A DNA stretch of 64,000 nt from an uncultured bacterium (GTDB lineage: Bacteria; Hydrothermota; UBA3072; B12-G15), in assembly GCA_965612735.1 (NCBI GenBank), contig CBFDSV010000005.1, positions 866 to 64,865 on the forward strand. Direction: 5' to 3'. The position numbers were made by a program, and so were the translations under genes. Below are positions 32,778-44,457 of the stretch, piece by piece; positions within the stretch are counted from its first letter, which is position 1, and every line of letters begins with the position of its first letter. The notes under the pieces were generated by a model that saw nothing but the letters and a program-made list of their open reading frames with translations, was not told the DNA's origin and did no database searches.

Positions 32778-33444
32778 AATAAAAGTTTATAGAGGCATAA
32801 GGGGCTGAAAGTTTTACCTCTGGACCACCAAGAACCTGATGCCCATCATCCAGTTTCCAGTCAGGATGCTGTGGTGAATAAAGATAACCAACCTTCACAC
32901 CAAGCATAAAGAACTTACTCAACTTAAAAAGCACACCCGCACCTGCAGTGAAACACATTCCTCCAGCTGCAAGAGTTGCCCTTCTTCCAGGGTCAGTGAG
33001 GAGTGAATCAAAGGAAACATCTGAAAGAACCCTGTTCAGTTTCATGGTCATTCCAACACTGCCCGAGCCAACAGTGAGAAAACCATAAGAAAACTTAAAC
33101 AGAGGTTTTATGTATCCCACCTCAAAGAATCCGCCACTGTAGGAGAGTTCTCCGTGCATTGTACCGGATTCTGAAGTGAGTGTTCCACCAAAACCTCCTC
33201 CTCCAATAAGAAAACCATTTATAATACCATAACCGCTCCCGCCATTCACATAAACGGTGTTCTCAAAACCCGGAAGTTCAGAGGCAACAGCAGTATTGAT
33301 AGACGAGACACCTGGACGAACACCACCATAAAAAAATCCACCAAATCCACCAACAAGGGAAAACACAATCAAAACCATAACACCTCCTTTGTTTAATAGT
33401 TTACTTTGCGATACAAAGTATAATACAAAACAAAGTTTTGTCAA
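32755..33444 (-). CDS. Hypothetical glycine-rich secreted or outer-membrane protein. Probable start at the internal Met around 33378.
   Basis: Signal-like MVLIVFSLVGGFGGFF. Gly/aromatic-rich beta-strand-like composition. Confidence 0.35.
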   Translation of the reverse strand: MTKLCFVLYFVSQSKLLNKGGVMVLIVFSLVGGFGGFFYGGVRPGVSSINTAVASELPGFENTVYVNGGSGYGIINGFLIGGGGFGGTLTSESGTMHGELSYSGGFFEVGYIKPLFKFSYGFLTVGSGSVGMTMKLNRVLSDVSFDSLLTDPGRRATLAAGGMCFTAGAGVLFKLSKFFMLGVKVGYLYSPQHPDWKLDDGHQVLGGPEVKLSAPYASINFYFGSSDEE

Positions 33445-33478
33445 GGGGTTGGGGATGATTTTTTTCTAAGTTATTAAA

Positions 33479-33525
33479 ACACAATATATAGTGGTAATTT
33501 TAAAAAAAACCACAATATATAGTTG
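33479..33525 (+). promoter_or_regulatory. Tandem NrdR boxes (ACACAATATATAGTGG at 33479..33494 and CCACAATATATAGTTG at 33510..33525), spaced 31 bp apart. Box 2 overlaps the -35.
   Basis: Each matches the NrdR consensus acaCwAtATaTwGtgt at 13-15 of 16 positions. Phasing of about 3 helical turns. Located immediately upstream of nrdD. Confidence 0.65.
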
Positions 33526-33551
33526 ACAATCCCTTGCTTTCCCTTTATACT
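33523..33551 (+). promoter_or_regulatory. Strong sigma70-like promoter of nrdD: TTGACA, 17 nt spacer, TATACT.
   Basis: Consensus -35, 5/6 at -10, optimal spacing. RBS AAAGGAGG lies 4 nt before the ATG at 33574. Confidence 0.6.
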
Positions 33552-33573
33552 GGTTTTGAGAAAAGGAGGTTTG

Positions 33574-36500
33574 ATGGAGCGCTTTATCAGGAAAAGGGAT
33601 GGTTCTATAGTTCCCTATGACAGGGCAAGGATTATAAGGGCTGTGTCTAATGCAATGAATGCTGTTGGATGTAAGGGGGAGGCGGACGAAATTGCAAAGT
33701 ATGTGGAGATTCTCCTTCATAGATGGTTTTTCAGAAAAGGCAGTATTCCACATGTTGAAGAGATACAGGATATTGTTGAGAGAACCCTTATGGAAAAAGG
33801 CTACCCTGAGGTTGCAAAGGCCTATATTCTGTACAGGCAGAAAAGAAAAGAAGCACGGGATATCAAATCCACTGTTGAGGAAGCAGAAAACCTGATAGAG
33901 CAATATATAGCCCGTTCTGATTGGAGGGTAAAGGAAAATTCAAACATGAACTTCTCTCTTCAGGGTATGAACTTTTATATCTCATCCTCCATTACTGCAA
34001 GATACTGGCTTAATAGGATATACACAGAGGATATTAAAAGGGCCCACGATGATGGAGACTTCCATATCCACGACCTCGGGCTTCTTTCAGTTTACACTTA
34101 TTATGGCAAGGAAGTGGTGATTGTTAAAGACAGTGAGGGTATAAAACTTATCTCTTTTGAAGACCTTTACAACTCCTGCAATACTCAGGAGAAGCTGCTT
34201 AATGAAAGGGACGGCGCATATGCCAAGTATCCTGTTGATATTTATGTTTTGGATAAGGACGGCTGGACAAAGGTGAAGAGGATAGTGAAGAAGAAGAAAG
34301 ATAGATACATGCGATTTCTGAAAAACAGGGGTGGCAGGAGTGTGATTGTTACAGACAACCATCCCATAATCACCAGAAACGGTGAAAGGATGGCAAAAGA
34401 CGTTCAAATCCAGAAAGATGAAACATTTACAGTAGATATCCCTGCCCTTTTGAAGGATGAAAATCTTTTTGAAGAAAAGGAAATTGACCTTCTTCAGGAG
34501 ATAAAAAAATACAACTTTGAAGAGGAAATCCGGGAAAAAATCTATTTCAATGGTTTTCATATAAGTGAGATTGAAAATACCAGTGAAGACGGTTACATTC
34601 ATACACTTACTCAGTCTTTTCCAGGAAAAATTCCCTTGACTGAAGAACTTGGATACCTGATAGGGTTTATTCTGGCTGAAGGTTACCTTTCATACGATGA
34701 GAAGGCTCCGAGGACCGTCACAGTATCCCAGAAAGAAAGGGATATCCTTGCAAAGATAAACAAAACACTGGTTAAACTTGGCATCCCTGGTTGTATTAAT
34801 CGGAGAGAAGACCATAACGTTTATGAACTTGTTGTGAAAAATGTATTCTTCAGGTTTCTATTAGAAAAGGTCTTCGGGATAAGACCTGGAGCCAGGCATA
34901 AAACCCTACCGGTAAGAATTCTTCACTACGGTAAAGAATTTATTAAAGGTTTAATCGCGGGATTTATTGATGGTGACGGTTCTATAAGTTCTTCAAAAAC
35001 CACCATTGACGTAAGGATTTCCTCCAGAGCACTCCTTGAACAGATGGCATATCTTATGACTTTTCTTGGTATTACACCACGAGACAGAAATCTTGAAGGT
35101 GCTGGCAGCGTCAGATTTTATAAAGGGAGGGAGATACACCAAAACTTTCCCTTATATGGGCTCTCCTTTAGAAAAACAGATGTAGAACTCCCCTCTCAGA
35201 TCTTTCAAAAGGCTGAAAGGTCATCCAAGGCATGGCACGATGAGGATAGAAATGCCTGGCACATTGTTCTCAATAACGAAAAAACAGAAATTCCTGATGA
35301 TGTGATTTATGATATTACAACAGAGTCATCTACATTGATTGTTAATGGCATGTGGAATCATAATTGTGTGGGGTGGGACTTGGAGGCACTTCTCAGAAGG
35401 GGATTTGGTGGAGTTGCAGGAAAGATTGAATCAAGACCTCCAAGACACCTTAGAACTGCACTTGGACAGATGGTGAATTTCTTCTACACCCTACAGGGAG
35501 AGGCAGCAGGTGCACAGGCATTCTCCAATTTCACAACCTATCTTGCTCCTTTTATTCGGTACGACGGGCTTGATAGAAAGGGTGTGAAACAGGCACTCCA
35601 GGAATTTCTCTTCAATGTTAATGTGGCTACAAGGTCTGGATTCCAGACACCATTCACCAATATCACCATGGACCTTGAACCACCAGAAAATCTCAAGAAC
35701 AAAAATGTCATAATTGGTGGTGAAGAAAAGGGTGAAACCTATGGTGAGTTCCATGAAGAGATGGACCTCCTGAATGATGTATTTGCTGAGGTAATGATGG
35801 AGGGTGATGCCAAACAGAGGATATTTACATTCCCCATACCTACATACAATATCACTAAGGACTTTGACTGGAAGAATGAGAAACTGAAGAGTCTCTGGGA
35901 GATGACTGCAAAATTTGGTATCCCCTATTTTGCCAACTTTGTCCATTCTGATATGAAACCAGAGGATGCAAGGAGTATGTGCCCAATTCACGGAGACGAG
36001 ATGGTGCTTATCCGTTCAAAAAGGGGAAGGGGGCTTGAATACTCCTGCATCAGGAACATTGTGGAAGGTCATGCAAAAGAGAACACGTATGAAATATTCA
36101 GTCACGGGAAATTCGTCAGGGGAAGATTCAATAGGTTCCCTAATCAGGAGATGATACAAGTGGAACTTGCTAATGGACACACCTTAGTTATCTCAAAAAC
36201 ACATATAAACTTTGTAATGAGGAGCAGGGATTCAGAAATTGAAGAACTTACAGGTGCTGAACTAAAACCTGGCATGTTTCTTCCTTATTCCTTGAAAGCC
36301 TACAATGGTAAAGGGGGAAATAGAGACCTGGGATTTTTTGTTGGGGCATATGCTGGAGACGGCTCTTTTGATAACGACAAAACAGTGGTCTTTTCGTTGA
36401 ATAAAGACGACCGTGTACTGAGAGAGGAACTTATAAGAATAAGTGAAAAATACTTTGGGGCACACTATTCTATTATCGAACCTGAGGGGAAAGGGCTTCT

Positions 36501-37938
36501 CTCTCTCAGGATTCATTCAAAGGCAGCGGTTGGCCTTTGCAAAGACTTCGTGGAGGCCAAAGGAAGAGATAAGCACTACACAGCCAGAGTCTTCGGGATG
36601 AGTAAAGAATTTAGATGGGGGGTGATTGAAGGACATTTAGCTACTGACGGCGGGACAAGAAACCGTATTTATACTTCTTCTCTAAAAATGGTTCAGACCC
36701 TGAACATGCTTTCTGCTTCTCTTGGAACCACTACATCAGTTAGAGTAGATGAAAGAGACAACAGATTAAGTGATAAGCCTGTTTACAGTGTTCTGATTTA
36801 TAGATTAAACAGGGAAAATTATGGGGACTTCTGGTTTAAAAAAGGAGATAAACTCTGGGTACGAATAAAAAGTATTACACCAAAAGGAATTTCTACAGGT
36901 TATTGCTTTGAGGTTGAAAATGATGAACCTATGTTTACTGTTGGAACCACAGGTATTCTGACCCATAACTGTAGACTCAGGTTGGACAACAGGGAGTTGA
37001 GAAAGAGGGGAGGAGGTCTCTTCGGGGCAAGCCCCATGACAGGCTCAATCGGTGTTGTTACAATAAATATGCCAAGAACAGGTTATCTATCACGGTCTGA
37101 AGAGGAATTTCTATCAAGGCTTGAACGATTGATGATACTGGCAAAGAACTCCCTGGAGATGAAGAGGAAGGTGCTTGAGGACCTGACAGAGAAGGGTCTC
37201 TATCCATACTCTCGGGTCTATCTATCAGAAGTAAAGAAGGCAACAGGTTCTTACTGGACAAACCACTTCTCAACCATAGGTCTTGTTGGAATGAATGAGG
37301 CATGCATGAACTTCCTTGGTGTTCCCATAACTGCAAAAGAGGGAAAGGAATGGGCAATAAAGATTCTCAATTTCATGAGGGAAAAACTTGCAGATTTTCA
37401 GGAGGAAACTGGAAACCTCTACAATCTTGAGGCAACACCTGCTGAGGGAACCTCATACCGTCTTGCAAAGAAGGACAAGGAGAGGTTTGCCTCCATCTTC
37501 ACACAGGGTGATTCTGATACACCATATTACACAAACTCAGTCCATCCACCTGTGTATGAGTTTGATGATATATATTCATTACTTGAACATCAGGATGACC
37601 TTCAGGTTTTATTCACAGGTGGAACAGTTGTACATCTTTTCCTTGGTGAACCTGTCCATGATTGGAAAATTGTCAGGGAACTTGTGAGAAGAATTGTTGA
37701 AAGATTCAGACTTCCCTACTTCAGCATTACGCCCACATTCTCCATATGCCCTGTTCATGGATACATACCTGGTGAACATCACATATGCCCGTATCCACAC
37801 ACAAAAGAAGAATTGGAAAGATTCGGGGTCATCACTGAACTAACAGAGGAAGAACTTTCAAGGTTACCAGAAAATGCCTACATTAAACCAGAGGACCCTG
37901 GAGGGACTTCCCTATTCCTTGACCTTGGGAATAAATAG
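33574..37938 (+). CDS. nrdD: Anaerobic ribonucleoside-triphosphate reductase catalytic subunit (class III RNR), with ATP-cone and two LAGLIDADG inteins. The glycyl-radical domain is absent (encoded separately downstream).
   Basis: ATP-cone at the N-terminus. HIHDL active-site finger. The two extein junctions, sequence-SM|CRLRL and NCVGWDL, align with the two catalytic Cys regions of E. coli NrdD. C-terminal YYTNS and a Zn-ribbon-like CPVHGY...HHICPY. The ORF track starts at 33523, but the Met with RBS is at 33574. Confidence 0.85.
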   Translation: MERFIRKRDGSIVPYDRARIIRAVSNAMNAVGCKGEADEIAKYVEILLHRWFFRKGSIPHVEEIQDIVERTLMEKGYPEVAKAYILYRQKRKEARDIKSTVEEAENLIEQYIARSDWRVKENSNMNFSLQGMNFYISSSITARYWLNRIYTEDIKRAHDDGDFHIHDLGLLSVYTYYGKEVVIVKDSEGIKLISFEDLYNSCNTQEKLLNERDGAYAKYPVDIYVLDKDGWTKVKRIVKKKKDRYMRFLKNRGGRSVIVTDNHPIITRNGERMAKDVQIQKDETFTVDIPALLKDENLFEEKEIDLLQEIKKYNFEEEIREKIYFNGFHISEIENTSEDGYIHTLTQSFPGKIPLTEELGYLIGFILAEGYLSYDEKAPRTVTVSQKERDILAKINKTLVKLGIPGCINRREDHNVYELVVKNVFFRFLLEKVFGIRPGARHKTLPVRILHYGKEFIKGLIAGFIDGDGSISSSKTTIDVRISSRALLEQMAYLMTFLGITPRDRNLEGAGSVRFYKGREIHQNFPLYGLSFRKTDVELPSQIFQKAERSSKAWHDEDRNAWHIVLNNEKTEIPDDVIYDITTESSTLIVNGMWNHNCVGWDLEALLRRGFGGVAGKIESRPPRHLRTALGQMVNFFYTLQGEAAGAQAFSNFTTYLAPFIRYDGLDRKGVKQALQEFLFNVNVATRSGFQTPFTNITMDLEPPENLKNKNVIIGGEEKGETYGEFHEEMDLLNDVFAEVMMEGDAKQRIFTFPIPTYNITKDFDWKNEKLKSLWEMTAKFGIPYFANFVHSDMKPEDARSMCPIHGDEMVLIRSKRGRGLEYSCIRNIVEGHAKENTYEIFSHGKFVRGRFNRFPNQEMIQVELANGHTLVISKTHINFVMRSRDSEIEELTGAELKPGMFLPYSLKAYNGKGGNRDLGFFVGAYAGDGSFDNDKTVVFSLNKDDRVLREELIRISEKYFGAHYSIIEPEGKGLLSLRIHSKAAVGLCKDFVEAKGRDKHYTARVFGMSKEFRWGVIEGHLATDGGTRNRIYTSSLKMVQTLNMLSASLGTTTSVRVDERDNRLSDKPVYSVLIYRLNRENYGDFWFKKGDKLWVRIKSITPKGISTGYCFEVENDEPMFTVGTTGILTHNCRLRLDNRELRKRGGGLFGASPMTGSIGVVTINMPRTGYLSRSEEEFLSRLERLMILAKNSLEMKRKVLEDLTEKGLYPYSRVYLSEVKKATGSYWTNHFSTIGLVGMNEACMNFLGVPITAKEGKEWAIKILNFMREKLADFQEETGNLYNLEATPAEGTSYRLAKKDKERFASIFTQGDSDTPYYTNSVHPPVYEFDDIYSLLEHQDDLQVLFTGGTVVHLFLGEPVHDWKIVRELVRRIVERFRLPYFSITPTFSICPVHGYIPGEHHICPYPHTKEELERFGVITELTEEELSRLPENAYIKPEDPGGTSLFLDLGNK
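34087..35364 (+). mobile_element. Intein 1 in nrdD (about 420 aa) with a LAGLIDADG homing endonuclease. N-terminal boundary is approximate (34087-34105).
   Basis: Intein block B (SVIVTDNHPIITRNG). LAGLIDADG blocks C and E (LIGFILAEGYL; LIAGFIDGDGSI). C-terminal block G ending ...LIVNGMWNHN followed by extein Cys (C|VGWDL). Confidence 0.7.
35980..36969 (+). mobile_element. Intein 2 in nrdD (330 aa) with a LAGLIDADG homing endonuclease.
   Basis: Begins CPIHGDEMVLI (block A, Cys1). Block B GHTLVISKTHINFV. LAGLIDADG motifs FFVGAYAGDGSF and RWGVIEGHLATDGG. Ends GILTHN followed by extein Cys (C|RLRLD). Confidence 0.8.
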
Positions 37939-37949
37939 CAGGAGGATTT

Positions 37950-38129
37950 ATGAAGGAGATAAAAAAACAAAATGAAAAAGCCGCATCAAAAAAAATCAGG
38001 GTTAAAGTTATAATGCCAGAGATTTATTCAAGGGTTGTTGGGTATTTCAGACCTGTCCAGAACTGGAACAGGGGAAAACAGAAGGAATTTCAGGAGAGGA
38101 GATACCTTAAGATTGATAAGGGGGTTTAG
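37950..38129 (+). CDS. Stand-alone glycyl-radical domain protein (59 aa) corresponding to the C-terminus of NrdD. Not in the supplied ORF track (below its 60-aa cutoff).
   Basis: Translation is MKEIKKQNEKAASKKIRVKVIMPEIYSRVVGYFRPVQNWNRGKQKEFQERRYLKIDKGV. It contains RVVGY (the RVxGY glycyl-radical motif) and a following NxGKxxE...R segment matching the NrdD C-terminus. GGAGG RBS 4 nt upstream. Its stop overlaps the probable nrdG start. Confidence 0.7.
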   Translation: MKEIKKQNEKAASKKIRVKVIMPEIYSRVVGYFRPVQNWNRGKQKEFQERRYLKIDKGV

Positions 38130-38802
38130 CGGAACCACCCTTATAGATTTTCCTGGAAGGATTGCATCCATTGTCTTTATTGGAGGATGCAATTTCAGGT
38201 GTCCCTTCTGCCACAATCCTGAACTCGTCCTTCCCGACCTAATTCAAAAACTCCCAATTCTTACTTCAGAAGAAGTGTTTGAAGAACTGCAAAACCGCAG
38301 GGGTTTTATTCAGGGTGTCACCATCACTGGTGGAGAGCCCCTTGTATGGGACAGCCTGATTGATTTTGTTAGGGGAATAAAATCACTCGGACTGGAAGTC
38401 AAAATAGATACAAATGGCTCCTTCCCTGAGAGGCTGAAGAAGTTAAAAATTCTGGTTGACTATGTTGCAATGGACATAAAATCCTCTCCTTCAAAGTACC
38501 ATCTTGCAACAGGCACTGATATAGACCTGGATAAACTCAAAGAATCCATAGCAATAGTCAAAACCTTCAGGGATTATGAATTCAGAACAACGGTTGTTCC
38601 AGGATTTGTTGACCAAGAGGACATTCATGAAATTGGAGAAATCATAAAAGGAGCAAAAAGGTATGTTCTCCAGCAGTTTAAACCAACAAAGGCAATAGAC
38701 CCGGATACATTGAGTATAATTCCATATACACTTGAAAGGCTTGAGGACTTCAGGGAAACAATCAAAGACTACGTTGATGAGGTCATTATAAGGTCATACT
38801 AA
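38113..38802 (+). CDS. nrdG: Anaerobic RNR activating protein (radical SAM). The ORF track extends it to a TTG at 38035; the TTG at 38113 fits homologues better.
   Basis: GGCNFRCPFCHN (CxxxCxxC radical SAM cluster) about 25 aa from the proposed start. GGEPL SAM-binding motif. Immediately downstream of nrdD and the glycyl-radical ORF. Confidence 0.8.
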   Translation: MIRGFSGTTLIDFPGRIASIVFIGGCNFRCPFCHNPELVLPDLIQKLPILTSEEVFEELQNRRGFIQGVTITGGEPLVWDSLIDFVRGIKSLGLEVKIDTNGSFPERLKKLKILVDYVAMDIKSSPSKYHLATGTDIDLDKLKESIAIVKTFRDYEFRTTVVPGFVDQEDIHEIGEIIKGAKRYVLQQFKPTKAIDPDTLSIIPYTLERLEDFRETIKDYVDEVIIRSY

Positions 38803-39378
38803 GTATCTGAGCAAAAGTTCCATTATAATGGCCGTTCCCACACCAACAGTAAAGTTGTCATCAAGTCTGATGGTTACCGCCTCTATCACTGTTGCACTGA
38901 ATGCACCTATAAGCATCACAACAAATGGAACATTGAGGGGTTTAAAAAATATAAAACCTATTACAAGGCATGTTATAAGGAAGGCAAGGCTACCTTCAAC
39001 ACTTTTACCTTTCAGAAATCTCAGCCTACCCCACCTAATACCAATGATTGTGGATGCAGTATCCCCGAAGAGAAGGTAGAGGAGTGAGAGGATTGCTACA
39101 CCCTTTGTGAACACTGCAATAATAAAGAATGTTGCAAGAAGATATGCAGTTGTACCCATTATAAATCCTGGCTCTTCTTTAAGGATACCCCTTGAATGGT
39201 CGTGGAGTGTTTTGTAAAAACCAGGGGCAACTTTTCTTATTACCTCAATAGGTGTCATGATTCCAAGAAGATAGGCAATTAGCATTTCAGCAGGTATCTT
39301 TGAGGGGGTGAAGGCATAAATCAGTGGGAATATTATCCCAACACCGATTCTATATGTCTTTCTTGCCCATATTTTCAT
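38794..39378 (-). CDS. Integral membrane CTP-transferase-family protein (CdsA / dolichol-kinase-like).
   Basis: LLFGDTASTIIGIRWGR...KGKSVEGSLAF resembles the PF01148 C-terminal signature. 194 aa, multi-TM. Confidence 0.5.
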   Translation of the reverse strand: MKIWARKTYRIGVGIIFPLIYAFTPSKIPAEMLIAYLLGIMTPIEVIRKVAPGFYKTLHDHSRGILKEEPGFIMGTTAYLLATFFIIAVFTKGVAILSLLYLLFGDTASTIIGIRWGRLRFLKGKSVEGSLAFLITCLVIGFIFFKPLNVPFVVMLIGAFSATVIEAVTIRLDDNFTVGVGTAIIMELLLRYLV

Positions 39379-39958
39379 GTCTCATCTCCCTTAATGCTTC
39401 CCTATTTGCAATTATTCCAACAATCAAAAAGATTATGAAGAAGGGCAATGCCCAGTGGATAAATCTTCTGTATATAAAGAGTGCAAGCCCCAGTGCAAAG
39501 ACAAAACCACTAATAACAACCACAGGATTCCTGGGTGCCCTCTGGATGGCAAAGTATGTTACTACAGCAATTGGGAAGAACCATGGAAAGAGGTATAAAA
39601 ACACCCCACCAGAGGTTGCCACACCCTTTCCACCTTTGAATCTTAAAAAGATGGACCAGCAGTGTCCAGCAACTGCAGCAATACCTGTAAGACCCACAAA
39701 GAAAGGATGGAGATTTAGGAAATCCCTTGCAATCCACATGGGTATAATTCCCTTCAGCATGTCAAGTGCCCATACAAGGAGACCATAGGGCTTCCCAACC
39801 TCCCTGAAAACATTTGCAGCACCAGGATTTCCAGAACCCACCTTCCTTATATCAATACCCTTTATCCGGGAAACAATTATGGCAAAGGGTATTGAACCAA
39901 ACAGGTAGCCCATAACAAGTGCCAGACCAATCTTCATATTAAAATTATACAGGAACAT
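39350..39958 (-). CDS. plsY: Glycerol-3-phosphate acyltransferase PlsY.
   Basis: GYLFGSIPFAIIVSR...GSGNPGAANVFR signature. 202 aa, 5 TM helices. Confidence 0.85.
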   Translation of the reverse strand: MFLYNFNMKIGLALVMGYLFGSIPFAIIVSRIKGIDIRKVGSGNPGAANVFREVGKPYGLLVWALDMLKGIIPMWIARDFLNLHPFFVGLTGIAAVAGHCWSIFLRFKGGKGVATSGGVFLYLFPWFFPIAVVTYFAIQRAPRNPVVVISGFVFALGLALFIYRRFIHWALPFFIIFLIVGIIANREALREMRHENMGKKDI

Positions 39959-42928: not shown

Positions 42929-43474
42929 TTACTCCTCCTTGAATGGATGGAAGTTCACAAAGTCTGCAAAGTGAACAATCCAGCCCTCGGGAATCCTCTT
43001 GACAAAATCACCCTCCTTTGAGTGTGCAGCAATTATGTGGACAACCTGGTATGGAAGACCATTCTTGTATGCAAGTGCAGCACCTGAAACAGGATGCCTT
43101 ATTCTCTTTCCGAATTCACCAACGTGGATTGTATCCTCTTTTACATACTCAAGGAACTTCCCTACATCATGCAGGATTGCACCAGAAACAAGTATATCCC
43201 TCTCCATGGGTAGAGCATCCCCATATTCCTCTTTTAATGTATCAAAGATGGCAATAGCAGTCCTTGTTACTGCCCTTGTATGTTTGATAAGGGAGATTTT
43301 TGTTCCCTTGATGAGCATGGTGAACGGTATCTCCTCAAGGTCCTCCTCCTTCCAACCCCCAATCTGGATGGCCTCCTCAATGGTCTTAATGGTCTTTTCC
43401 TTCAGTTCACTATCCTTAATCTCCTCAACCTCAGGAAAGATTTTTCTTATATCCATTTCCCCTCCTTCTTTCAC
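42929..43474 (-). CDS. HD-domain phosphohydrolase.
   Basis: H...HD motif (GAILHDVGK) and a downstream His cluster (HIIAAHSKEGD). 181 aa. Confidence 0.6.
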   Translation of the reverse strand: MKEGGEMDIRKIFPEVEEIKDSELKEKTIKTIEEAIQIGGWKEEDLEEIPFTMLIKGTKISLIKHTRAVTRTAIAIFDTLKEEYGDALPMERDILVSGAILHDVGKFLEYVKEDTIHVGEFGKRIRHPVSGAALAYKNGLPYQVVHIIAAHSKEGDFVKRIPEGWIVHFADFVNFHPFKEE

Positions 43475-44457
43475 CCCCTCCCCTTTCTGGGGACGGAGGT
43501 TGACTTTTTGACATTTTTATCTCCTCGTTCCTTCTCCTTTTTAATACGTTCCTTTGCCCTTTTATAAATCTTTCCAAGTGATGAATATCTTAGATTTTTA
43601 AAGATGGGCATCCTGATAATATCACTATACTTCAATCCTGCTTCATCCCTCAACCTCACCAGCAATTCACCACGAAGCCTTTTTCCATTTCTTTTTGAGG
43701 TATCAATCTTTTCAACCTTTACACCAGACTCTTTTTCAAAATCCCTGATAACTTCGGAAGGTTCAACAAATGGATAATCCTTCTTTCTTCTCCGAAGATT
43801 TTCCCCGGTAGATTTTCTCCTGTTAAAACGTCTTTCAATCTCCCCAACAAACTCAGTATTCCCAATCACGTCTCCAAACCGTGTCCTCTTCACATCTGGA
43901 GATTTGTCCCTTGAAATCCAATCCATGAAAAGTGCGTCAAGTTTATCCTTCCCTCCAATGATACTTTCAACAAATTCATGGTCCACAAGGCCAGATGTTT
44001 TTTCAGAAAAGTAATCTGATATACTTGACCATATGTATTCGTATGGATTCTTAACAATTCCTGCACGAACAGGATTCAGTAAAACATATGTGAGTACCAT
44101 AATCATGTAGGGCTCATCCTGAATCAAAGTGGATTTGTACCTATCTTGAAAAACATACCCTTTCCCACCCTCAAGATATCTATAATATTTTCCAAAAGTA
44201 CCATTCAGATACCTCATAAAATCACCAAGCCTTCCTGAGGAATTCTGCAAAACAAGATGATAATGATTATCCATAAGGCAATATGCAAATATTTTTATAC
44301 GGTATTTATTCTTTGCCTCTGCCAACAGGTTGAGGAAATAGTTTTTGAGTTCTGTAGACAGAAAAACAGGTTCTCCCCTTAATCCACGGGAGACAATATG
44401 ATGATATGCACCTTCATAAGTTACACGGGCATGCCTCATAGAGAGGATTATAAACAA
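43471..44457 (-). CDS. REP-associated tyrosine transposase (RAYT; IS200/IS605-like Y1 HUH transposase) with a long basic C-terminal extension. Probable true start is the ATG at 44439.
   Basis: HHIVSRG and the HUH motif (MDNHYHLVL). Catalytic-Tyr region (FQDRYKS). Flanked by inverted REP copies. The C-terminal roughly 150 aa is K/R-rich with a possible DnaA-domain-IV-like HTH. Confidence 0.75.
   Translation of the reverse strand: MFIILSMRHARVTYEGAYHHIVSRGLRGEPVFLSTELKNYFLNLLAEAKNKYRIKIFAYCLMDNHYHLVLQNSSGRLGDFMRYLNGTFGKYYRYLEGGKGYVFQDRYKSTLIQDEPYMIMVLTYVLLNPVRAGIVKNPYEYIWSSISDYFSEKTSGLVDHEFVESIIGGKDKLDALFMDWISRDKSPDVKRTRFGDVIGNTEFVGEIERRFNRRKSTGENLRRRKKDYPFVEPSEVIRDFEKESGVKVEKIDTSKRNGKRLRGELLVRLRDEAGLKYSDIIRMPIFKNLRYSSLGKIYKRAKERIKKEKERGDKNVKKSTSVPRKGRG
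43489..43518 (+). repeat. REP-like element, copy 3 (+): GGGGACGGAGGTTGACTTTTTGACATTTTT. It forms the left inverted repeat flanking the RAYT gene.
   Basis: Same core as copy 1. Preceded by CCTCCCC, which can pair with GGGG(AC)GGAGG. The annotated 3' end of the RAYT ORF reads through it (…PRKGRG*). Confidence 0.7.

Follow-up and report, generated by a model that had tools for sequence, protein, structure and literature searches.

A conserved two-gene arrangement predicts a class III ribonucleotide reductase with its glycyl radical on a separate small subunit

[quoted passage not shown] To our knowledge, the radical glycine is located on the catalytic chain in all class III RNRs that have been characterised and, PFL and its spare part excepted, in all glycyl radical enzymes. 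In the full-text literature, as covered mostly outside subscription journals, we came across no account of a class III RNR in which the glycine resides on a subunit of its own, and an earlier report is possible. A similar design logic is realised in class I RNR (NrdA/NrdB), in which a second subunit stores a stable radical and passes it to the catalytic one. In the NrdD protein of P. copri, the glycyl-radical domain comprises, in this order, a structural Zn site, the buried Gly loop, and a C-terminal tail (PMC11226230). Spare-part proteins are known for formate lyases only, according to a review of June 2026 (PMC13450708); the cognate radical-SAM activase activates GrcA/YfiD, which functions by insertion into its large catalytic partner (PMC8683613). 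The distribution of an RNR catalytic chain over two consecutive ORFs is known from the split class II enzyme NrdJa/NrdJb of Pseudomonas aeruginosa and Thermus phage YS40, in which the C-terminal piece is a zinc-finger/redox module and an extra C-terminal domain of the first piece is thought to mediate the interaction of the two (PMC9669993; PMC3653736).

We analysed a 64,000-nt stretch of DNA from an uncultured bacterium (hereafter, the window), in which nrdD is divided over two ORFs. The gene for the large subunit (33574..37938, + strand) encodes a protein of 1454 aa that contains two inteins and would measure ~702 aa after splicing; the earliest possible start of its ORF is at 33523, and public gene calls use the ATG at 33574. 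A TAG codon at 37936-37938 terminates this ORF behind the C-terminus ...LFLDLGNK (...PEDPGGTSLFLDLGNK). An intergenic gap of 11 nt (c AGGAGGA ttt) contains a Shine-Dalgarno (SD) sequence, AGGAGGA (37940..37946, + strand), and is followed, in a different frame, by a small gene (37950..38129, + strand) that begins with the ATG at 37950 and encodes the 59-aa protein MKEIKKQNEKAASKKIRVKVIMPEIYSRVVGYFRPVQNWNRGKQKEFQERRYLKIDKGV. The TTG start codon of the next gene, nrdG (38113..38802, + strand), precedes the stop codon of the small ORF, and the two genes overlap by 17 nt. The nrdG product (229 aa) is a radical-SAM activase with the Pfam domains Radical_SAM and Fer4_12; it matches the NrdG2 equivalog model TIGR02495 (NCBIfam) with 195.7 bits at a cutoff of 131, and its gene is called identically in six public contigs. 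A preliminary description of this DNA had reported a large nrdD ORF without the RVxGY motif, a separate 59-aa ORF with its own ribosome-binding site in another frame, and an overlap between the stop of the latter and the nrdG start; all three are borne out, and the motif is found on the 59-aa ORF. Public annotations leave most of the small genes without a name or call them hypothetical, and they label the large genes as complete NrdD; for these lineages, one therefore cannot rely on genomes to infer that a functional anaerobic RNR is present.

The small protein carries the motif YSRVVGYFRPVQNWNxGKxxEFxxR, and G31 (codon 38040-38042) is its predicted radical glycine. Residues E24, Y26, S27, R28, V29, V30, G31, Y32, R34, P35, V36, and W39 are invariant in 34 diverse small homologues, as are N40, G42, K43, E46, F47, and R50. 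Common to the small proteins is a basic alternating strand, (K/R)V(K/R)V..(P), followed by E.YSRVVGY.RPV..WN.GK..EF..R. No Pfam family besides NRDD was found on the small ORF (E <= 0.01), the PFL-type Gly_radical family included, and in NCBIfam it matches NrdD models alone, a dedicated family for the small protein being absent from that collection. The two gene products complement each other in their matches to NrdD profiles: the large ORF covers the Pfam NRDD model up to position 534 of 562 and the small ORF positions 534-560 (E 4e-8), and in the NCBIfam model NF006126 (684 positions) an intein-free orthologue of the large subunit (P0125) spans positions 4-652 (1050 bits) and the small ORF positions 652-682. 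When aligned to the chain of P. copri NrdD, the break falls between the final zinc ligand and the R-[VI]-x-G-Y loop. The glycyl-radical domain, which had initially been placed on the small ORF as a whole, is thus divided; of its parts, the small ORF carries the Gly loop and the C-terminal helix, and the zinc-binding half stays on the large one. About 65 residues that flank the break are absent from fused NrdD, namely a 45-aa tail on the large subunit and an N-terminal extension of the small ORF that measures 22 aa here and 13-25 aa across orthologous loci.

The large subunit consists of an ATP-cone, the catalytic barrel, the finger loop SMCC, a zinc motif, and the 45-aa tail; the Pfam matches of its ORF are ATP-cone, NRDD (E 2e-164), LAGLIDADG, and Intein_splicing. 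Judged by its sequence, the zinc-knuckle motif CPVHGYIPGEHHICPYPH (37747..37800, + strand; C-x2-H ... C-x3-H) is the half of the glycyl-radical domain that was kept on the large subunit. The C-x2-H...C-x3-H arrangement occurs in 120/120 of the closest relatives of the spliced large subunit, all of which conform to the pattern C-x2-H-G-Y...C-P-[YFL]-x-H. Fused relatives possess C-x2-[HC]-G-Y...C-P-x-C-G, then 3-4 further residues, and then EVYSRVVGY. The putative zinc ligands of the large subunit (Cys640, His643, Cys653, and His657 in spliced numbering) therefore correspond neither to the four-Cys structural site of T4 nor to a C-x2-H...C-x2-C site. The initial assessment of this zinc site as non-canonical holds in part: since fused relatives share C-x2-H, the His of the first knuckle is ordinary, and the signature of the clade is the C-x3-H second knuckle, in which the CPxC of canonical NrdD is changed to CP[YFL][P/x]H in all 120 relatives. 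Behind the knuckle lies the clade-specific tail TKEELERFGVITELTEEELSRLPENAY...SLFLDLGNK (37801..37935, + strand; 45 aa). Among 119 relatives the tail measures 16-56 aa and has the pattern [TS][ED]E[ED]Lx[RK][FY]G, then xE[VIML]E[LVI]...L..[LM]...[AS], with a Gly that is invariant (119/119). We propose that this tail serves as a docking module for the small subunit.

Comparison with the canonical NrdD/NrdG systems of phage T4, T. maritima, and P. copri (PDB 1H79, 4COI, 8P23) shows that the ATP-cone, the barrel, the finger-loop Cys residues, the RVVGY...WN.GK..EF Gly loop, and NrdG are all shared; the radical, however, is carried by the same chain in canonical NrdD and is predicted to reside on a separate ~7 kDa protein here, with ~65 extra residues at the break. 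Like NrdJa/NrdJb, the locus presents an RNR catalytic chain on two consecutive ORFs with a short gap (PMC9669993; PMC3653736), but NrdJa/NrdJb belongs to class II and depends on a B12 cofactor, and its detached piece is a large re-reduction domain and not the radical site. The resemblance to class I RNR is likewise limited, since NrdB is an unrelated ferritin-like metalloprotein from which the radical moves by long-range proton-coupled electron transfer and not by loop insertion.

To trace the distribution of the two-gene layout, we searched public sequence collections with the small protein. A word-index search with the 59-aa protein yielded 218 proteins, every one of them (218/218) 39-93 aa in length, with matches in Thermodesulfobacterium sp. 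TA1, Thermosulfurimonas marina, and Thermodesulfatator. An exhaustive HMMER search with a profile built from 34 small proteins against 1.84 billion cluster representatives produced 4969 matches; the best 150 represent separate 50%-identity clusters, and all of these are complete proteins of 49-109 aa. Among the newly retrieved HMMER proteins, 140/140 start with a start-codon residue. In a scan of one genome per species, inspection of the best 80 loci revealed a stand-alone small ORF in 21, of which 18 belong to the clade of the window; the latter derive from WOR-3-like bacteria, Thermodesulfobacteriota, Fermentibacteria/Sabulitectum, an Aquificales MAG, and an Anaerolineales MAG. The layout is present in the genomes of the cultured bacteria Thermodesulfatator indicus DSM 15286, Thermodesulfobacterium sp. 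TA1, and Thermosulfurimonas marina; in the first of these, the large subunit measures 690 aa and contains no intein. The search for the same arrangement in relatives, suggested by the preliminary description, was thus successful in ~20 species-level genomes. The proposed coupling to nrdG, seen as the 17-nt overlap in the window, also extends to relatives: of the 20 split loci with a neighbouring NrdD large ORF, 13 have nrdG as the next gene downstream, and no nrdG was found within 6 kb of the Thermodesulfobacterium and Caldimicrobium loci. The C-terminal barrel of the split loci is 62-82% identical to that of the window and that of fused loci 46-61%, and in a neighbour-joining tree the split loci cluster together save for one interleaved fused locus (L081). 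Taken together, the split is real, conserved, and under selection, and many thermophilic as well as uncultured bacteria share the two-piece layout.

A Gly loop is missing from 119/120 of the closest large-subunit relatives. The sole fusion among these 120 is P0219 (712 aa, from a JGI metagenome), a single chain of the type ...CPYEHSEENYSKYGIEVNSRKQIPCEVYSRVVGY..., which represents a re-fusion or else a form close to the ancestral state of the split clade. P0219 demonstrates that the tail and the N-terminus of the small protein are topologically contiguous. In this protein, CPYEH is followed by a 17-aa tail remnant and then by IPCEVYSRVVGY.

The gene anatomy, the complementary profile matches, the conservation of and selection on both pieces, the coupled change of the zinc motif, and the one natural fusion together argue for an obligate two-polypeptide class III RNR, in which a large subunit performs catalysis, a small one carries the radical, and NrdG acts as the activase; we consider this reading very probable. 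The three genes would be translated from one operon. The large subunit would supply the ATP-cone, the ten-stranded barrel with its Cys-Cys finger loop, the Cys2His2-type knuckle, and the tail of 16-56 aa, and the small subunit would supply a beta-hairpin with the radical glycine G31 plus the helix after it. NrdG, together with S-adenosylmethionine, should first take a hydrogen off G31 of the small subunit, either as a free or as a docked peptide. The N-terminal basic beta-strand (RVKVIM) of the small subunit would then dock non-covalently on the zinc knuckle and tail of the large subunit, and its Gly hairpin would enter the barrel beside the finger-loop cysteines, where the chemistry is expected to proceed as in other class III RNRs. 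Damage by oxygen cuts the protein chain of a glycyl radical enzyme at the glycyl radical. A possible benefit of the split is that such a cleavage would cost the cell a 59-aa peptide and not a protein of ~700 aa (1454 aa prior to splicing here); another might be that the glycine is easier to reach for the activase.

Structural modelling was performed with AlphaFold2 (AF2) on an artificial single chain in which the spliced large subunit was joined to the small ORF. With alignment depth on the large part only, the barrel was modelled confidently, and the small part remained below pLDDT 50 and unplaced. A second alignment was composed of 58 fused homologues, P0219, and nine close small proteins, with the zinc site and the Gly loop aligned; the resulting model has a mean pLDDT of 80.8 and a pTM of 0.80. 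Three strands (718-722, 726-731, and 734-737) and a helix (743-751) are modelled in the small part at pLDDT 75-89, and the Gly occupies the tip of the hairpin (726-737). A helix-strand-helix unit is predicted for the conserved stretch of the tail (residues 659-677, pLDDT 77-85); the finger loop is of low confidence (pLDDT 34-45), and so are the linkers. Solved NrdD structures are the best structural matches of the model, with a target-normalised TM of up to 0.76. A PDB sequence search with the 171-aa junction region alone gave no match; the full concatenated sequence matched NrdD. The model is supportive of a two-piece enzyme, though not as independent evidence, since the alignment columns of the Gly loop came from fused homologues and the hairpin is therefore partly homology-modelled.

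If it exists as predicted, a radical site on a natural and widespread ~7 kDa peptide would represent a new quaternary architecture for an essential enzyme. The split would allow one to ask how the buried Gly loop exits the barrel to meet the activase, and the radical-bearing piece could be labelled, mutated, or swapped without altering the barrel. It also suggests a cheap way of repair after O2 damage for organisms living at oxic-anoxic interfaces.

A different function of the small protein is conceivable as well: it might be a true spare part of the GrcA type or serve another enzyme, with the large protein obtaining its radical from elsewhere or being inactive. Precedents for spare parts exist in the PFL system with GrcA and T4 Y06I (PMC13450708; PMC8683613), which are likewise small, stand-alone proteins with a glycyl-radical loop (PMC8683613). 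Moreover, small ORFs occur as orphans away from any NrdD, for instance at locus L041 in a bacterial MAG. Among the best 80 IMG/VR loci (L167-L246), 40 contain stand-alone small ORFs, and for 35 of these 40 we found neither an NrdD core nor NrdG within up to 10 kb; for ten of the orphans, the available sequence extends 8 kb or more in each direction. Since the HMM used for the NrdD core detects 36 of 37 fused viral NrdDs, it is sensitive enough for such calls. What speaks against a spare part in the window and its relatives is that 119/120 large subunits lack a glycine loop which could be replaced, that the small ORF is located between nrdD and nrdG, and that it matches C-terminal profiles of NrdD only. 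GrcA is a copy of the C-terminus of a PFL that is itself intact, and it comes into play only once O2 has cleaved the latter, whereas the partner protein considered here never has the loop. The likeness to GrcA/YfiD that had been noted for this DNA therefore holds as a functional analogy but not as family membership, the small ORF matching only NRDD profiles and filling in a missing loop. Because its partner lacks the loop and nothing is duplicated, we regard the small protein as an obligate subunit, and a role as a spare part or in another enzyme as improbable.

A single fused NrdD could also be produced from the two ORFs by recoding, that is, by programmed frameshifting or stop codon readthrough. 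The gap in the window is indeed as short as 11 nt, and at four loci both ORFs are in one frame with a single stop codon between them. At orthologous junctions, however, all three stop codons (TAA, TAG, or TGA) and all three relative frames occur, and the distance between the ORFs ranges from an overlap of 8 nt to a gap of 43 nt. Since stops, frames, and gaps vary in this way, a conserved slippery site, frameshift signal, or readthrough signal is not possible, and the variation fits independent, often coupled, translation of the two ORFs. Each orthologous small ORF has its own ATG, preceded at a distance of 5-10 nt by an SD site of the type GGAGG/AGGAGGT/GGGGG. These data also uphold the early view that the arrangement is not a simple frameshift. 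An Rfam scan of 33000..39500 (E <= 1) was negative for introns and all other RNA families. In view of these findings, recoding is very unlikely, and independent translation of two subunits is the preferred reading.

The two pieces might alternatively be joined after their synthesis, either by a split intein in protein trans-splicing or through the removal of a small intron from the RNA. Phage RNR genes are known to be interrupted by introns, inteins, or homing endonucleases, and group I introns in particular occur in phage nrdD genes (PMC3653736). The large-subunit gene itself already contains two inteins, whose borders we derived from an alignment with intein-free orthologues. Intein 1 (34096..35364, + strand; 423 aa) comprises a LAGLIDADG homing endonuclease and is inserted past ...HIHDLGLLSVY; intein 2 (35983..36969, + strand; 329 aa) is positioned between the finger-loop Cys pair (RSMC|CRLRLD). 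Removal of intein 2 restores RSMCCRLRLD, the form present in intein-free orthologues and invariant in the alignments. Yet neither the 45-aa tail nor the ~22-aa extension contains intein blocks or a terminal HN followed by C, S, or T, the Pfam intein domains are confined to the two internal sites, and the tail varies in length between 16 and 56 aa. The 11-nt intergenic gap and the negative Rfam scan speak against an intron. Joining of the pieces by either route is thus scarcely credible, and we retain the reading in which they remain separate polypeptides.

Several features of the inteins are recorded here in their own right. According to the alignment-implied borders, neither intein starts with Cys or Ser (intein 1, TYYGKEVV; intein 2, PIHGDEMV). 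Intein 2 has a Cys in a block-F-like GYCFEVE and a Thr ahead of its terminal HN, and by these motifs it looks like a class 3 intein. The intein content varies among near-identical strains: P0121 (97% identical) has none and P0122 has one, and the contig of locus L004, which is otherwise 98-99.6% identical, is without intein 1.

Seven public contigs encode the exact 59-aa protein, and six of these, assembled independently (ENA, JGI, Logan), were compared; all six agree over the 401 nt of the junction (37800..38200; 100% identity), and no indel separates them. Although the adjacent ORFs lie in differing frames and broken nrdD genes do exist (e.g., at locus L086, where the break is elsewhere in the gene), there is next to no chance that an assembly or sequencing error or a recent pseudogene, arising from one indel in an ordinary nrdD, accounts for a junction that is the same in six independent assemblies, that is flanked by ~65 residues unmatched in fused NrdD with both unique flanks conserved as protein, and that recurs as a layout in ~20 species-level genomes and >150 protein clusters.

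A broader role of such peptides can be put forward only tentatively. NrdD-type glycyl-radical peptides might, in general, be an exchangeable trans-acting radical cofactor of class III RNR, a GrcA for RNR; the basis for this suggestion is the occurrence of orphan copies in phage-like contigs, and we regard it as possible but rather doubtful. Breaks at other positions, of independent origin, occur outside the clade of the window in an Elusimicrobium MAG, in a Hippea MAG, and in phage-like contigs. By analogy, phage-borne radical peptides may supply or replace the radical subunit of a host NrdD, a role that has been suggested for T4 Y06I with PFL (PMC13450708; PMC8683613).

A second type of split, independent of the clade of the window, is present in an Elusimicrobium MAG (L075:5650-6120) and a Hippea MAG (L040:150-640), both of which have kept the C-x2-[HC]...C-x2-C ribbon. 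Their large ORFs end in a heptad-like helix (KIENIETQIALLEEEL in L075 and KLEEIESEIQRLKRQLELE in L040), and after a spacer of 116-124 nt the small ORF opens with a helix (ERKNIENKITELKAAKE and RDEILKRIEELEKAKKE, respectively) that is followed by CEVYSRVVGY. The helices on the two sides of this break may pair with each other. The spacer of L040 contains G-rich TGGGTGAAT-like repeats.

The stand-alone ORFs in IMG/VR contigs (e.g., loci L208, L177, L178, L209, and L242) differ in their starting points; some begin inside the second zinc knuckle (MKCG..TEVYSR), and others comprise the entire CxxC...CxxC ribbon plus the Gly loop. Some of the orphans adjoin genes of phage-like appearance, for a ResIII/DEAD helicase and a DUF5131 protein, or for an endolysin-type Amidase_2. 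The orphan Gly-loop ORF of the uncultured bacterium MAG mentioned above (L041:5983-6165) is situated between rhodanese-like and MBL-fold genes, and no match to NrdD or NrdG was found across this 12-kb locus.

The length of the chain past the Gly loop varies among fused proteins. The fused NrdD of Clostridia and relatives (L024, L026, L032, L036, L037, and ~35 others) extends for ~120-150 residues beyond the loop; in the clade of the window and in most other fused forms, just 22-50 residues follow. In an uncultured Clostridiales (L086:5611-6381), nrdD is broken ~130 codons 5' of the Gly loop, which leaves the zinc ribbon on the C-terminal piece, and the extension past the Gly loop holds a CPNC motif; this break is probably a frameshift or a pseudogene. 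In the window itself, a gene for an IS200/IS605-type Y1 transposase (Y1_Tnp; ~43471..44129, - strand) is found ~4.7 kb downstream of nrdG, and the genes preceding it match the Pfam families G3P_acyltransf, SSF, Aconitase, and HD.
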